From: Vicinamibacteria bacterium
GTDB lineage: Bacteria > Acidobacteriota > Vicinamibacteria > Marinacidobacterales > Marinacidobacteraceae
Length of the DNA: 64,000 nucleotides
NCBI GenBank assembly: GCA_963668695.2
Contig: CAXXLQ010000004.1
Location: 2,976,001-3,040,000, forward strand
Direction of reading: 5' to 3'
The position numbers and the translations under genes were made by a program. Position 1 is the stretch's first letter, and each line of letters opens with the position of its first letter. Below the pieces are notes generated by a model. The model had not been told where the DNA came from. It did no database searches and saw only the letters and a program-made list of their open reading frames with translations. This document shows positions 38,030 to 42,932 of this stretch, in pieces.

Positions 38030-39127
38030 ATGGAAACCGATCTTCAAGACACCGAGGCCGCCGTCGCGGCGCGCCAGGACCTTGACCAGCATGTGCGAGA
38101 CATGGTGCGCTGGCATTTCTCGGAAGAGACGGGATGTCCGTTCTGGCTCGATTTCCGGAAACGGCTGGATTTCGACCCCATTGCGGCAGTTCAGGGCTTT
38201 GACGACCTGAGGAAGTTTCCCCCGTTCGAAGACGAATGGCTCCGGGGCGGGCCGGTGCGCCGCTGGATCCCCGCGCCCTACCAGGACCGGCCGCTCTACG
38301 TCTTCGAGACCGGCGGCACCACGGGAATCCCCAAGAGCCGCACGTCGGTGGACGACTTCCGCACCGACTACGAGCTGTTCAGCGCGGTGCTGGCCGACGA
38401 GCACTTCCCGCCGGGGTCCAACTGGCTGATGCTGGGACCCTCGGGGCCGCGCCGGCTACGGCTCGCGGTGGAGCATCTGGCCCAGTTCCGGGGCGGGATC
38501 GCGTTTTGCATAGATCTCGACCCGCGCTGGGTCATCAAGCTGATCCGGAAGGGTTGGACCGAACACCTGCTGGCGTATCAGGCGCACGTGATTGACCAGG
38601 CGCTGACCGTGCTGTCGGCCGGCCACGACATCCGCTGTCTCTTCACGACGCCGAAGCTGCTCGAAGCGCTCTGTTTGCGGCTCGAGGACGAGGGGAAGAC
38701 CCTCGCCGAGACGGGGATCCGGGGCATCTTCTCGGGGGGCACGGAGTTCACCCCGCAGTGGACCCGATTTGCGATGGAGGAGTTGCTGGACGGCGTGTTC
38801 CTGCAGCCCACCTACGGCAACACCCTGATGGGGCTCGCCCCGGCCCGCCCGCCGACTCCCGAGGACGGCTACAAGATCGCCTACTACCCGCCGATGCCCC
38901 GCGCCGTGCTGGAGGTCGTGGATTCCGACACCGGCGACGTCGTGGACTACGGCGAAACCGGGCGGGTGCGTCTCGCCACGCTCACGCGGGAGTTCTTCGT
39001 CCCCGGTTTCCTGGAGCGCGACGAGGGCGAACGCGAGCCGCCCTGGGGCCCCTACGCCTGGGACGGCGTCAGCGGCGTCCGCCCCTTCGGCAAGCTCCCC
39101 GGCGGCACCACGGTGGGGGTGTACTGA
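38030..39127 (+). CDS. LuxE/PaaK/EhpF-like adenylate-forming enzyme
   Basis: WHFSEETGCPFWL, P-loop-like FETGGTTGIPK, LGPSGP, IDLDPRWV, GGT, TYGNTLMG, YGETGRV, ERD. Confidence 0.75.
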   Translation: METDLQDTEAAVAARQDLDQHVRDMVRWHFSEETGCPFWLDFRKRLDFDPIAAVQGFDDLRKFPPFEDEWLRGGPVRRWIPAPYQDRPLYVFETGGTTGIPKSRTSVDDFRTDYELFSAVLADEHFPPGSNWLMLGPSGPRRLRLAVEHLAQFRGGIAFCIDLDPRWVIKLIRKGWTEHLLAYQAHVIDQALTVLSAGHDIRCLFTTPKLLEALCLRLEDEGKTLAETGIRGIFSGGTEFTPQWTRFAMEELLDGVFLQPTYGNTLMGLAPARPPTPEDGYKIAYYPPMPRAVLEVVDSDTGDVVDYGETGRVRLATLTREFFVPGFLERDEGEREPPWGPYAWDGVSGVRPFGKLPGGTTVGVY

Positions 39128-39145
39128 CGTCCGATCCGGCGTTAA

Positions 39146-39360
39146 CAGCCTGTGGCGAAACCCATGCGGCCCAGTTCTCCCGGTGGGGGCTCGCCCGGCG
39201 ATGCATCCCGGCTGAATCACTCCGCTTCGCTTCGTTCCGCGTTGCGTTTCGGTCGAAATACACTCGGTATTCCTCCCTCACGCGCCTTGTCAGCCGGGCG
39301 CCTCGCCCCACCGGGAGAACTGGCCGGGCTCGGCGCTCACCTCGGTTCCACCACAGGCTG
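39146..39360 (+). mobile_element. MITE family A copy, 215 bp = 179 + 2 x 18
   Basis: TTAA direct repeat on both sides; one module in each orientation. Confidence 0.88.
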
Positions 39361-39455
39361 TTAAGGACAGGCGCCGGATGCCCGGCGTACATCCACCGGG
39401 CGCTACGGGCTGCGATTTTGCCGGGAGGCGAAGACTTCCCGAGGAGGACAAGAAG

Positions 39456-42332
39456 ATGATCTGGCGAACCTGGATCCGGAACGGCGGGCGCGGATGTTTA
39501 ACAGCCGGTGGCAGAACCCAGGCGGCGTTCGACCGGCGATGCATCCCGCCTGAACCGCGCCGCTATGCGGCGCTCGGCGTTGCGCTTCGGTCGAAATACA
39601 CTCGGTATTCCTCCCTCACGCGCCTTGTCAGTCGCGCGCCTCACCGCTCTCGGCGCTCACCCGGGTTCCACCACAGGCTGTTAACAGCCTGTGGCAAAAC
39701 CCACGCGGCCCAGTTCTCCCGGTGGGGGCTCGACGGGCGATGCATCCCGGCTGAACCGCCCCGCTTCGCGGGGCTCTGCGTTGCGCTTCGGTCGAAATAC
39801 ACCCGGGCCAGTTCTCCCGGTGGGGGCTCCTCCCTCACGCGCCTTGTCAGCCGGGCGCCTCGCCCGTCTCGGCGCTCACGTGGGCTTCACCAAAGGCTGT
39901 TCACGGGGATCCTGGCGGCGGGCGTCGCGACCGCCGGGCCCAGCGCGGCGAGCGCCCAGTCCGAAACCGTCCTCATTCGCGCGCGGACGATCCACACCGT
40001 CACCAGCGGAACCCTTCACGAGGGCGAGATCCTGATCCGGAACGGGATCATCGAGGCGGTCGGCCCGTCCGTGGATGTTCCCGCCGACGCCCGCGTGTAC
40101 GAAGCCCAAGTGGTGATCCCGGGCCTGATCGACGCGCACGCGCACCTCGCCCTGGACCGTTCCGGCCGCTCGCGCATCCCCGGCCCGGTGACCGCCGAAT
40201 GGAAAGCCGTGGAGCACCTGGAGCTGTCGGATCCCATGATCCAGGTGGCGCTCTCCGGAGGCGTGACGTCGCTGGTCACGCGCCCGGGCAGCGGTGTCAT
40301 TTCCAGTGGGCAGTCGGTCGCGCTCAAGTTGAAGCGCATTCCAGGTCCGGAGATGATCCTCAAGCCCTATGTGGACCTGAAGATGGCCGTGCGCCCGCTG
40401 ATCAACCTGCGGCCAGGCGAGACGCCGCAGACGGTGATGGGGTGGTACGCCGCCGCCGACGAGTACTTCCGCCGCGCACAAGCCTATGTGCGAGAGCAGG
40501 AAGCCCGCGCAGCCGGAGCCGGAGCCGGACCGGCGCGTGACGAGCGCCTGGAGGCCTTCGCGGCCGTGATCCGGGGGGAGGTCATGGTCCACGCGCACGC
40601 GCACTATCCGAGCGAGGTGATGATGGTGCTGCGCCTGGCGCGCAAGTACGGCTTCTTCGACCGCTTGGCCCTCGCGCACGCGGAGGAGATCTTCCCGCTC
40701 ACCGAGCTGCTCGCCGGAACCAACATCGTCCCGGTCATCGGTCCGATGATGATCGTCCAGTATTTCAACGATCCAGAGCCCCTGAATCTGCTGAAGGAAC
40801 TCCTGGACGCAGGCGTGCACGCCAGCATCCAGACCGACATGTCGAACCAGCACTTCAAGGACTTCCGCGAGTACGGGGCGTTTCTGGCGCGCCACGGCCT
40901 CACTGACGAACAGGCGCTCGAGGTAATGACAATCAACGGAGCGCGCGCGATGATGCTCGACCACCGGGTGGGCAGCATCGAAGTCGGAAAGGACGCGGAC
41001 CTGGTGCTGCTCGACGGGCATTTCCTCGATCTGACCGCCGACCGGGTGGAGCGCGTGTTCGTGGACGGGCGGCTCGAGTACGAGCGCGACCGCGTGCTCC
41101 AGCCCGAACGACCCCGCGCCGTGGGGCCGTTTACCCCGGTGATCGGGGCGATCACTCCGGACGACGAGGCCTTCGCCATCACGGGCGCGCATGTGTTCAC
41201 CGTGAGCAGCGGCGCAATACACAACGCCACCCTGGTAGTCGAGGACGGCCGGTTCACCCGGGTGGAGGCGGACGCCGCTCCGCCCGCGGGGATGGCGGTC
41301 ATGGACGTAGGGGGCAGGGTGGTCATGCCGGGAACGGTGATCGCGCGCGCTTTTCCCAACGACTGGATCGGCGACCTCAAGTGGCAGGTGCAAAACGACG
41401 AGACCACCGCGCCGGTGGTGCCGGAGATGAACGCCCTGTACGCCGTGGACCCATGGTTTCCGTCGTACCGGGTGAACACGACGATCGGAGTGACCGCGAT
41501 CCACGTCACGCCCGGCACGCGCAATCTGGTGGGCGGCAACGGCGTCGTGGTGAAAACGCCTGGCCTCGACTTCGAGAAGATGGTGCGCCGCGAGCCCGCC
41601 AGCATGGTGTTCGCCCTCACCGCCTCGGCGCTCAGGGAGTGGACGGACGAGGCCGGGGCGCCGCTGACGGTCGAAAGCGCCTCGGCGATGGTCAGAAAGA
41701 CGCTGGACGCCGCACGCAGGTACGCGGAGGCGGAGGAGCCCCAGGAGTACGACGCGCGCCTCGAAGCGCTCCTGCCGCTACTCCGGCGAGAGGTGCCGGC
41801 GATGGTTCATGCGGATCGCGTGGCCGAGATCGAAGAGGCGCTGAGCCTCGCGGAGGACTACGGCCTGAGGCTCGTGATCACCGGCGGAGTGTCGGCGCAC
41901 CGACTGGCCGACCGGCTCGCGGCGGCCGGCGCGGGAGTCATTCTGGGCAACTCCGGGAGCTACGCGTCGGACATCCGCGGGGGTGGTGAGGGCTGGAGCG
42001 TGGAGGGGCCCGCCATCCTGAACCGGGCCGGCGTCAAGGTGGCGTTTTTCGGTCCGGGCGCCTCGCGGCGCGCTTCGCCCATCGGGCGGCTGGGCGGTGA
42101 GCCGATCCTCAACGCGGCGTGGGCCTTCCGCAACGGCGTCCCGGAGGTGGACGCGCTGAGGATGGCGACGCTGCATGCCGCCGAGCTGCTCGACTCGGGC
42201 GATCGGATCGGAAGCATCGAACCGGGCAAGGACGCGGATTTCGTCATTCTGGAAGGGCATCCGTTCGACTACCGGGTGGTGCCGGGGTGGGTGTTCGTGG
42301 ACGGGAGATTGGAGGTGGGCGGTCCTCAGTAA
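39456..42332 (+). CDS. Secreted two-domain amidohydrolase with two in-frame MITE insertions in the signal peptide
   Basis: GAGGAGG RBS then ATG 39456; PGLIDAHAH, GVTS, VHAH, GSIEVGKDADLV; second domain ends GSIEPGKDADFV..GHPF. Confidence 0.85.
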   Translation: MIWRTWIRNGGRGCLTAGGRTQAAFDRRCIPPEPRRYAALGVALRSKYTRYSSLTRLVSRAPHRSRRSPGFHHRLLTACGKTHAAQFSRWGLDGRCIPAEPPRFAGLCVALRSKYTRASSPGGGSSLTRLVSRAPRPSRRSRGLHQRLFTGILAAGVATAGPSAASAQSETVLIRARTIHTVTSGTLHEGEILIRNGIIEAVGPSVDVPADARVYEAQVVIPGLIDAHAHLALDRSGRSRIPGPVTAEWKAVEHLELSDPMIQVALSGGVTSLVTRPGSGVISSGQSVALKLKRIPGPEMILKPYVDLKMAVRPLINLRPGETPQTVMGWYAAADEYFRRAQAYVREQEARAAGAGAGPARDERLEAFAAVIRGEVMVHAHAHYPSEVMMVLRLARKYGFFDRLALAHAEEIFPLTELLAGTNIVPVIGPMMIVQYFNDPEPLNLLKELLDAGVHASIQTDMSNQHFKDFREYGAFLARHGLTDEQALEVMTINGARAMMLDHRVGSIEVGKDADLVLLDGHFLDLTADRVERVFVDGRLEYERDRVLQPERPRAVGPFTPVIGAITPDDEAFAITGAHVFTVSSGAIHNATLVVEDGRFTRVEADAAPPAGMAVMDVGGRVVMPGTVIARAFPNDWIGDLKWQVQNDETTAPVVPEMNALYAVDPWFPSYRVNTTIGVTAIHVTPGTRNLVGGNGVVVKTPGLDFEKMVRREPASMVFALTASALREWTDEAGAPLTVESASAMVRKTLDAARRYAEAEEPQEYDARLEALLPLLRREVPAMVHADRVAEIEEALSLAEDYGLRLVITGGVSAHRLADRLAAAGAGVILGNSGSYASDIRGGGEGWSVEGPAILNRAGVKVAFFGPGASRRASPIGRLGGEPILNAAWAFRNGVPEVDALRMATLHAAELLDSGDRIGSIEPGKDADFVILEGHPFDYRVVPGWVFVDGRLEVGGPQ
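39502..39899 (+). mobile_element. Two tandem MITE family A copies (39502-39680, 179 bp; 39685-39899, 215 bp)
   Basis: Arrangement TTAA-[copy]-TTAA-[copy]-TTCA. Confidence 0.9.
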
Positions 42333-42548
42333 CAGCCTGTGGTGGAACCCGGGTGAGCGCCGAGAACGGCCAGTTCTCCCGGTGGGGGCGAGACGCCCGG
42401 CTGACAAGGCGCGTGAGGGAGGAATACCCAGTGTATTTCGACCGAAACGCAATGCAGAGCGCCGCAAAGTGGCGCGGTTCAGGCGGGATGCATCGCCGCT
42501 CGAGCCCCCACCGGGAGAACTGGGCCGCCTGGGTTTCACCACAGGCTA
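42333..42548 (-). mobile_element. MITE family A copy, 216 bp, 2 modules
   Basis: Begins directly after the amidohydrolase TAA; CAGCCTGTGGTGGAACCC...GGGTTTCACCACAGGCTA. Confidence 0.85.
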
Positions 42549-42594
42549 TTCCGCTCGCGAGCGGCGCCTGCCGCACCGCCGGACTTCGCTTCGG

Positions 42595-42932
42595 CGGCGT
42601 GTTCCTGCAACCCACCTACGGCAACACCCTGATGGGGCTTGCTCCGGCGCGCCCGCCGACTCCCGAGGACGGCTACAAGATCGCCTACTACCCCCCGCTG
42701 CCAAGCGCCGTGCTGGAAGTCGTGGATTCCGACACCGGCGAGGTGGTGGACCATGGCGAAACCGGGCGGGTCCGTCTCACCGCGCTCACGCGGGAGTTCT
42801 TCGTCCCCGGTTTCCTTGAGCGCGACGAGGGCGAACGCGAGCCGCCGTGGGGACCCTACGCCTGGGACGGCGTCAGCGGCGTCCGCCCCCTTCGGGCAAC
42901 TCCCCGGCGGCACCACGGTCGGGGTCTACTGA
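42595..42932 (+). pseudogene. Duplicated, frameshifted 3' fragment of the LuxE/EhpF-like gene
   Basis: Near copy of 38791-39127 (GVFLQPTYGNTLMG...GVY*), 338 vs 337 bp, with scattered substitutions and a net +1 shift near 42890. Confidence 0.9.

Follow-up and report, generated by a model that had tools for sequence, protein, structure and literature searches.

Miniature transposable elements read in frame inside the predicted signal peptide of an acidobacterial amidohydrolase

Fusions in which a miniature inverted-repeat transposable element (MITE) is read in frame with an open reading frame (ORF) are called 'not unusual' in the available portion of a 2024 review, where the Rickettsia palindromic elements (RPEs) are singled out for their frequency (PMC10969869). 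According to the portion of a second source at hand, RPEs (Ogata et al. 2000, 2002) occupy 19 protein genes, and a guanylate kinase carrying such an insert is translated and active (PMC2229807). The same portions of these sources record in-frame ORF fusions for the ERIC, Correia (107 bp) and BOX elements (PMC2229807, PMC10969869), and also the fusion of a Yersinia palindromic sequence (RU-2), YPO1552, in which a hydrophobic MITE peptide partly forms the signal peptide of a small novel ORF (Delihas 2007, PMC2229807). Here we describe a stretch of 64,000 nucleotides (hereafter the window) from a Vicinamibacteria bacterium of the Marinacidobacteraceae (assembly GCA_963668695.2, contig CAXXLQ010000004.1, positions 2,976,001 to 3,040,000), in which two MITEs stand in frame within the predicted signal peptide of an amidohydrolase, and we compare this locus with relatives that lack the elements and with other insertions of the same family.

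The likeness to RPEs, as far as they are covered in these sources, lies in short palindromic mobile elements that sit in frame in conserved genes and are read as extra residues (PMC10969869, PMC2229807). We liken the MITE to RPEs by its mechanism of tolerance and set it apart by frequency and by the predicted fate of the residues, irrespective of sequence. ERIC, Correia and BOX differ from it in family, host and size, and no preference for signal peptides is reported for them in the portions at hand (PMC2229807, PMC10969869). YPO1552, as described there, resembles our locus in that a putative exported protein has a MITE in frame at its N-terminus, and the element touches the signal peptide; unlike that fusion, the peptide here is basic and non-hydrophobic and lies inside the pre-existing signal peptide of conserved enzymes, with the original core kept. 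With RUP and the IS630-linked, TA-duplicating MITEs the family shares terminal inverted repeats, TA duplication, high copy number and a hairpin-forming body, and it differs from RUP-type MITEs in its 18-bp length steps and in that a quick search found no IS630-type partner with matching ends. Autotransporters offer a parallel on the side of the host protein: their extended signal peptide regions place a long N-terminal extension before a normal core, and the proteins are still exported and cleaved. Those extensions are ~25 conserved residues with a proposed function, whereas the ones described here span 61-176 residues, originate from selfish DNA and vary between strains. In the literature that we searched (subscription journals and supplements lay outside its scope), we found no MITEs inserted into pre-existing signal peptides and no such site preference, and the term 'signal peptide' does not occur in the available portion of the 2024 review (PMC10969869). 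In-frame MITE fusions as such are known (RPE, ERIC, YPAL); the preference for signal peptides is apparently new, since it did not appear in the literature searched.

Two elements in frame and the empty site in relatives

The amidohydrolase ORF runs from 39456 to 42332 on the + strand and is open without a stop to 42332 with both elements included. Its parts are listed below in window coordinates, where the n-region is the basic start of the signal peptide.

39441..39448, + strand: ribosome-binding site (RBS) GAGGAGGA, 7-8 nt 5' of the ATG, read directly
39456..39500, + strand: ATG and original n-region, 15 codons in all; start position shared with the orthologues
39501..39683, + strand: MITE copy 2, 181 bp (39501-39681) plus the TA at 39682-39683 shared with copy 3; 61 codons in frame
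39684..39902, + strand: MITE copy 3, 217 bp (39684-39900) plus TC at 39901-39902; 73 codons in frame
39903..39956, + strand: original hydrophobic and Ala-x-Ala cleavage region, 18 codons, ending in Ala-Ser-Ala, with Gln at 39957
39957..42332, + strand: mature two-domain amidohydrolase, intact; Pfam PF01979 (E 1.5e-33) and PF07969; 97-98% identity to insert-free orthologues

The insert totals 183 + 219 nt, or 61 + 73 codons, with zero stops. The original prediction had named a strong RBS with an ATG at 39456, followed by 61 and 73 stop-free codons of two MITEs in frame, and direct reading bears out both parts. Codon 15 is TTA (39498-39500), and its TA (39499-39500) is the insertion target; the TC after copy 3 is a decayed TA. 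Copies 2 and 3 have terminal inverted repeats of 20-23 nt that are common to two further copies nearby (copies 1 and 4), with inverted arms I12 and I16-I18 (20-23 nt) at the ends of each copy, and copy 3 contains two 18-bp modules. The window contains a 25-nt element core 13 times, whereas 100 shuffles gave none.

Relatives without the elements define the empty site. A search of 31 related genomes recovered the amidohydrolase orthologue at 76-98% identity within the genus, at 12 loci (L001-L012); one unpublished genome (G027) entered only this tally of relatives. Many further orthologues are present in the protein collection. Eight loci are empty (L003-L008, L011, L012), two are filled (L001, L002), and L009 and L010 are unread at the junction. 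Two of the insert-free proteins, P0002 (824 aa) and P0006 (823 aa), are 98% identical to the window protein, begin Met-Thr-Trp and pass from the n-region directly into the hydrophobic core, which gives an ordinary leader of ~33 residues. The empty site in L003 (genome G001) reads TGG TTA ACA AGG, and L004 and L008 read TTCAC at the point of insertion. The RBS GAGGAGGA is conserved in L002 and L004 and nearly so in L005. Alignment of the orthologues, the check proposed with the original prediction, thus reveals an uninterrupted TTAA at codons 15/16 and a leader that is shared across orthologues; the plausible signal peptide expected once both copies are removed has its counterpart in the ordinary leader of the empty-site proteins. 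Since the orthologues share both the start and the empty site, the ATG and the n-region belong to the gene and not to a chance upstream ORF.

Filled alleles come with one or two elements. In addition to the window form (958 aa, two elements), P0001 (897 aa), encoded on a different contig of 2.05 Mb, carries copy 3 without copy 2 and is 100% identical in the mature part, and P0005 (897 aa, 98%) carries one element, a diverged form of copy 3. L002, in genome G004, holds a single 201-nt element with TTAAC on both flanks. Copy 2 is a later and very recent insertion, there being no other difference between the window and P0001. The window genome (G000) and G004, G001 and G008 form a star, with 23, 23, 36 and 25 private differences (107 in total) and 5 informative sites in 2,373 nt. 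The element in L002 is 89.6% identical to window copy 3 at a coding-sequence identity of 97.9%, and at two other loci with clearly orthologous elements the elements are no more diverged than the adjoining genes. Because it is more diverged than the gene, we take the G004 element to have inserted separately at this TA. From these comparisons there were probably three separate insertions at this TA, all forward and all open.

Three further features flank the gene.

38030-39127: upstream AMP-binding-family gene
~39143..39364, + strand: MITE copy 1, between the AMP-binding gene and the amidohydrolase RBS; direct and inverted repeat families D1, D6 and I16
42330..42550, - strand: MITE copy 4, inverted, at the TA of the amidohydrolase TAA stop codon; repeat families D6, I1 and I15

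Copy 1 is absent in relatives, and in L008 the spacer between the two genes is only ~25 nt. The 3' ~370 nt of the AMP-binding gene (38760-39127) recur after copy 4 (42560-42932), with ~92% identity over 96 nt aligned and the same C-terminal residues. The amidohydrolase and its flanking elements thus lie between a whole AMP-binding gene and a copy of its 3' end, an arrangement that hints at a MITE-associated rearrangement or duplication.

The extended leader and its start of translation

With 14 Arg+Lys and 2 Asp+Glu, the residues encoded by each element have a net charge of +12, and the original 15 n-region residues carry +3; with both elements the predicted n-region is 149 residues long at ~+27. 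The addition of ~134 Arg-rich residues to the n-region, as originally proposed, is borne out. The inserted residues are basic and have no strongly hydrophobic window. The top hydrophobic 11-residue window within the first 230 residues adjoins the 3' end of the insert, and its Kyte-Doolittle value of 2.09 falls within the range of the empty-site orthologues (1.86-2.77). The last two element codons, Leu-Phe, replace the Cys-Leu of the empty-site form, so that the hydrophobic core is as long as before. The presumed cleavage site, Ala167 and Gln168, does not vary across an alignment of 20 sequences. Read by eye, the leader has the pattern of a Sec signal peptide cut by signal peptidase I, with a basic n-region, a hydrophobic core and Ala-x-Ala, at a length of 167 residues with the insert against ~33 at the empty site, which exceeds the usual ~18-35 residues. 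AlphaFold2, run on the 958-aa precursor with a 20-row alignment, returned a mean pLDDT of 43; residues 1-169 scored lowest (21-36) and formed one two-residue strand (2-3) with no other secondary structure, in a model too poor to infer disorder from.

In-frame ATG, GTG or TTG codons occur at 39378 and 39456, and the next one follows only at 40071. By 40071, 56 codons beyond the insert, the sequence is already within the conserved first strands of the enzyme. Since no canonical start occurs between 39456 and 40071, an enzyme with an export signal needs read-through from 39456, and across the genus the orthologues start at the position of 39456. A start downstream of 39903, which would have undone the original prediction, has no canonical codon before 40071. 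As for the transcript, the RNA folding energy of 39420-39960 is -266.6 kcal/mol (z = -1.76 relative to shuffles). Nothing here argues for a structural RNA block, because this segment is not unusually structured for its G+C content, and no Rfam family matches the region.

The element family and its other coding insertions

The genome that holds the window (4.10 Mb, 67.5% G+C, 4 contigs) is rich in this family. BLAST with the four local copies gave 617-626 merged loci, covering ~145 kb or 3.5% of the genome, and a 12-nt terminal motif is found 738 times on one strand and 750 times on the other; these family counts are inflated by a few percent through assembly redundancy. The elements are short and leave room for no ORF of transposase size, and they combine terminal inverted repeats with high copy number and presence/absence differences among close relatives, which identifies them as MITEs. 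The TA target-site duplication is likewise seen, as a single TTAA in L003 and a TA at both ends of each element in the filled alleles, where TA is indistinguishable from TTAA as the target because the element ends are palindromic. When 400 elements were paired via their terminal motifs, most measured 183-345 bp from one terminal inverted repeat (TIR) to the other, and the lengths were quantised as 183 + 18n, with +1 variants: 183 (64 elements), 201 (35), 219 (35), 237 (21), 255 (19) and 273 (9). Element length was divisible by 3 in 227 of the 400. The 18-bp steps stem from an 18-nt module that is present 0 to ~9 times in either orientation, and orthologous copies across genomes differ by indels of 18 nt or its multiples.

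Only one of the six frames is generally open, the forward frame reading TTA ACA GCC, which is free of stops in 290 of 360 oriented copies and in 187 of the 214 whose length is a multiple of three; the remaining five frames are open in 7 to 127 of the 360. The amidohydrolase stays one ORF because both of its elements lie in this usually open orientation and frame, each as a multiple of 3 nt. An open frame in an element of 67% G+C is nothing special by chance, and arithmetic from the length and frame counts gives a random insertion at the amidohydrolase site a ~27% chance of staying open, which makes the open frame at this locus only partly more than chance. Chance does not readily account for the agreement of the ATG and n-region 5' of the elements with the empty-site orthologues. 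Three insertions, all open at ~0.27 each, correspond to a chance of ~0.02, which is suggestive, not compelling.

Most copies lie at stop codons or between genes. Among blocks of elements that follow a coding flank, 136 of 204 start within -10 to +3 nt of the stop codon, and the stop codons counted at block junctions are mostly TAG (71) and TAA (59). We propose that most copies came to rest in stop codons and spacers because the TA target is rare in G+C-rich coding DNA. Tandem or nested arrays that share a TA are common in the family, with block lengths up to ~900 bp. A quick, non-exhaustive search of the genome found no cognate autonomous insertion sequence (IS) whose ends match: between TIR pairs 700-2600 bp apart there is no transposase, with Pfam returning nothing or an HD domain, and none of the 4 DDE_3 matches in the genome belongs to an IS630-type element with ends that match the MITE. 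The only TA-flanked DDE_3 element that could be delimited, L092 (G000:C4:667052-668191; IS630-type, DDE_3 E 7.8e-22, 1,140 bp), has 14-nt inverted ends unrelated to those of the MITE. Element-coded matches number 78-142 per genome in G000, G001, G004 and G008 against 5-65 in the other twelve, so the family is expanded in one clade of the genus. A search of the 61-residue element peptide against 1.84 billion cluster representatives returned 178 matches at E <= 0.001, and the best 150 of these 178 are proteins of 53-543 aa, mostly ~200 aa; such a search is useless as a census because representatives hide insertion alleles.

Other coding insertions were sought through an open-frame screen of the 546 blocks that reach 100 bp, which yielded 875 block-frame pairs, with flanks scored by a codon model trained on 892 long ORFs, and the 32 cases with a strongly coding downstream flank were read. 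Seven in-frame insertions were verified against empty-site orthologues, five of them at the junction between n-region and hydrophobic core (n/h junction) of signal peptides. They are listed below with filled, empty and unread loci; the six beyond the amidohydrolase are documented at the protein level only, and protein family names follow annotation.

This locus: two-domain amidohydrolase, n/h junction of the signal peptide; 2 filled, 8 empty, 2 unread of 12
C4:643854-644092: Amidohydro_3 lipoprotein, after Met-Lys-Arg-Leu; 1 filled, 6 empty, 0 unread of 7
C4:1811187-1811405: ankyrin-repeat protein, in the signal peptide with the element reversed; 3 filled, 9 empty, 2 unread of 14
C4:3367057-3367585: M24-family peptidase, in the signal peptide as a nested 528-nt pair; 2 filled, 12 empty, 0 unread of 14
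C4:1778873-1779047: DUF5916/CBM9 protein, in the signal peptide as a remnant without termini; 1 filled, 3 empty, 6 unread of 10
C4:1339437-1339626: TPR protein, internal; 1 filled, 3 empty, 6 unread of 10
C4:948702-948890: outer-membrane beta-barrel, near the C-terminus; 1 filled, 9 empty, 0 unread of 10

At the lipoprotein locus all six empty loci have uninterrupted signal peptides, and the closest of them, in G001, begins with the identical four residues. G004 and G008 also carry the ankyrin insert, and G004 the peptidase insert as well. Only the TPR and outer-membrane-barrel cases would retain the insert in the mature protein. Beyond the three genomes read directly, adjoining match pieces show the TPR gene to be contiguous in others; in G004 (L060, G004:C1:1263460-1264414) the gene halves lie ~300 nt apart with a TAG inside the match, possibly owing to another insertion, one that breaks the frame, in or close to this position. 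The outer-membrane-barrel gene in G000 may be broken, as homology is lost further upstream. Among the verified cases no N-terminal insertion was found in a protein without a signal peptide. As a rough estimate, signal peptides make up a percent or two of coding sequence.

Five other candidates fell outside this set. The through-ORF candidates at C4:3471394-3471774 and C4:2558493-2558887 proved to be genuine coding sequence in which the terminal motif is matched by chance. At C4:3547382-3547624 the insert would sit just after the leader of a small protein, and this case was unconfirmed, as the element-containing query was swamped; C4:2867135-2867804 and C4:1813558-1813764 were likewise unconfirmed.

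The expectation that the family inserts in frame elsewhere is borne out by these loci, seven with the amidohydrolase itself and five of the seven in signal peptides. The description as RPE-like holds for in-frame insertion with the ORF kept and fails for frequency: coding insertions account for only 7-8 of the 546 blocks, with most blocks at stops or between genes. RPEs, in the portions of the sources at hand, occupy many housekeeping genes, with their residues kept in the mature protein, whereas five of the seven insertions here lie in the leader, ahead of the predicted cleavage site. A separate screen for mid-gene insertions by coding flanks found 46 blocks between co-oriented flanks, 11 of them in frame, of which 1 reads through; the rest lie between genes.

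The peptidase offers the clearest view of selection. Its arrays in G000 and G004 are orthologous (95.5% identity), with indels of 18, 18, 18, 54 and 36 nt as their only differences, and both are open from the shared start codon. The gene has a ratio of nonsynonymous to synonymous substitution (dN/dS) of 0.097 at dS 0.26 (419 codons, G000 vs G004), and this comparison of sequences points to long-standing purifying selection with the array in place. In the nested pair (L045 in G000, L050 in G004) one element sits within the other, and the frame in which this inner, second element is read is stop-free in only 78 of 360 copies, yet it is open in both genomes. For the amidohydrolase itself, G000 vs G004 gives dN/dS 0.22 at dS 0.053.

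As a control for frame-breaking insertions, we took stop-containing blocks immediately before a strongly coding ORF 150 or more codons long. The first start lay more than 12 codons past the block (13-49 codons) in 6 of 69 blocks, and 5 of those 6 look like ordinary starts by eye. Frame-breaking N-terminal insertions thus number 1 to 6 against 5 in frame, a difference that is significant only if the low count is right.

Competing readings and what they imply

We propose that two MITEs landed successively in the TA of a TTAA at codons 15/16, within the signal-peptide region of an amidohydrolase that is predicted to be secreted or periplasmic. Translation from the old ATG would run through both elements and yield the n-region of 149 residues at ~+27, followed by the original core and Ala-x-Ala. 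The basic extension would stay cytoplasmic, in line with the positive-inside rule, the hydrophobic core would engage Sec, and signal peptidase I would remove the whole leader, element-coded residues included. With the leader removed whole, the mature enzyme would be unchanged. More broadly, insertions into genes would be purged in nearly all cases, with survivors that keep the frame and fall where extra residues are harmless; the n/h junction of cleavable signal peptides would be a tolerated landing place, where frame-breaking insertions are purged. That the amidohydrolase precursor is translated through, exported and cleaved in this way has, in our estimate, a probability of about 0.65. The wider proposal, that coding insertions of the family find refuge mainly in cleavable signal peptides and that the export machinery handles n-regions of 60-180 basic residues which are discarded at cleavage, is tentative, and we put it at somewhat short of even odds.

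A number of points weigh against this proposal. Translation, export and cleavage are inferred from sequence, and the signal-peptide calls are n/h/c patterns read by eye. A leader of 149 n-region residues at +27 greatly exceeds what is normal for a signal peptide, and export might be slowed or blocked by it. In metatranscriptome contigs from four runs, examined over 39100-42400, the gene body is covered patchily at a depth of 2-9; the contigs bridge no junction between element and gene and leave 39988-40209 uncovered, which is uninformative either way, and the depth over the elements stems from other copies, with DNA carry-over possible. The dN/dS of the amidohydrolase is not tied to the time after insertion because of the star phylogeny and because the G004 element looks independent, and that of the ankyrin gene (0.37-0.77 at dS 0.02-0.04, with or without the element) is uninformative. 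The in-frame cases were found via open frames, so frame-breaking cases are harder to see, and the count of the latter depends on the by-eye reading of six loci. Copy 2, finally, is so recent that selection has had little time to act on the two-copy allele.

Several of these points could also be read as signs that the insertions silenced the gene or blocked export, leaving a young pseudogene whose frame is open only because the MITE frame usually is. The extreme length and charge of the leader, the lack of junction-spanning RNA in the contigs, the zero substitutions between the window and P0001 and the ~27% of random insertions that stay open are all consistent with this. Against it stand the three probably separate insertions here, each of them in frame; the recurrence of this arrangement in four more exported proteins; the low dN/dS of the peptidase, whose array is present in two genomes; and the 809 codons after the insert, which are stop-free and 97-98% identical to the orthologues. 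We consider silencing unlikely. It is also conceivable that translation begins at a non-canonical codon at or after the end of copy 3, with the elements serving as a 5' untranslated leader and the signal peptide reduced to its core. CTG at 39897, ATC at 39909 and CTG at 39912 are in frame, and MITEs directly upstream of ordinary gene starts are common (69 blocks), but none of these codons has a Shine-Dalgarno-like sequence at the usual distance, the product would have no basic n-region, and the in-frame upstream ATG with its elements, here and at four other loci, would go unexplained; such a start is doubtful, and we give it a little less credence than silencing.

The tandem pair might, lastly, be an assembly artefact of a real allele with one element. 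P0001, identical in its mature part, has copy 3 alone, and the assembly contains redundant near-identical stretches (C1 vs C4, and both C4 ends). A simple duplication error is unlikely because copy 2 (183 bp) and copy 3 (219 bp) are unequal in length and diverge in sequence (63% vs 89% identity to copy 1, in register). Arrays that share a TA are common in this family, and the finding would stand even with the one-element allele; we regard an artefact as highly improbable. On the assembly itself, C1 (144 kb) repeats C4:310-389 kb in reverse at 99.5-99.7% identity, and the first ~90 kb of C4 recurs at its end at 99.1-99.5% identity. These redundant stretches are probably a second strain or haplotype in the assembly, which fits its contamination figure of 9.3%.

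Returning to passage through the elements with loss of the whole leader at cleavage, the finding suggests that export signals which are later cut off are a safe place for selfish DNA within genes. If this is true, a part of the protein that is discarded would give mobile DNA a cost-free entry into genes, a rule that is testable in any MITE-rich genome. Leaders with 0, 1 and 2 elements (33, ~100-106 and 167 residues) on one enzyme form a natural series for the tolerance of Sec towards n-region length, and gene callers and signal-peptide predictors would misjudge the starts and localisation of such proteins, here with forms of 824, 897 and 958 aa. One of the affected genes encodes a predicted secreted ankyrin-repeat protein, and ankyrin-repeat proteins are a class often discussed for sponge symbionts. 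In these uncultured marine Acidobacteria, leader length would then vary between strains while the mature proteome stays unchanged.

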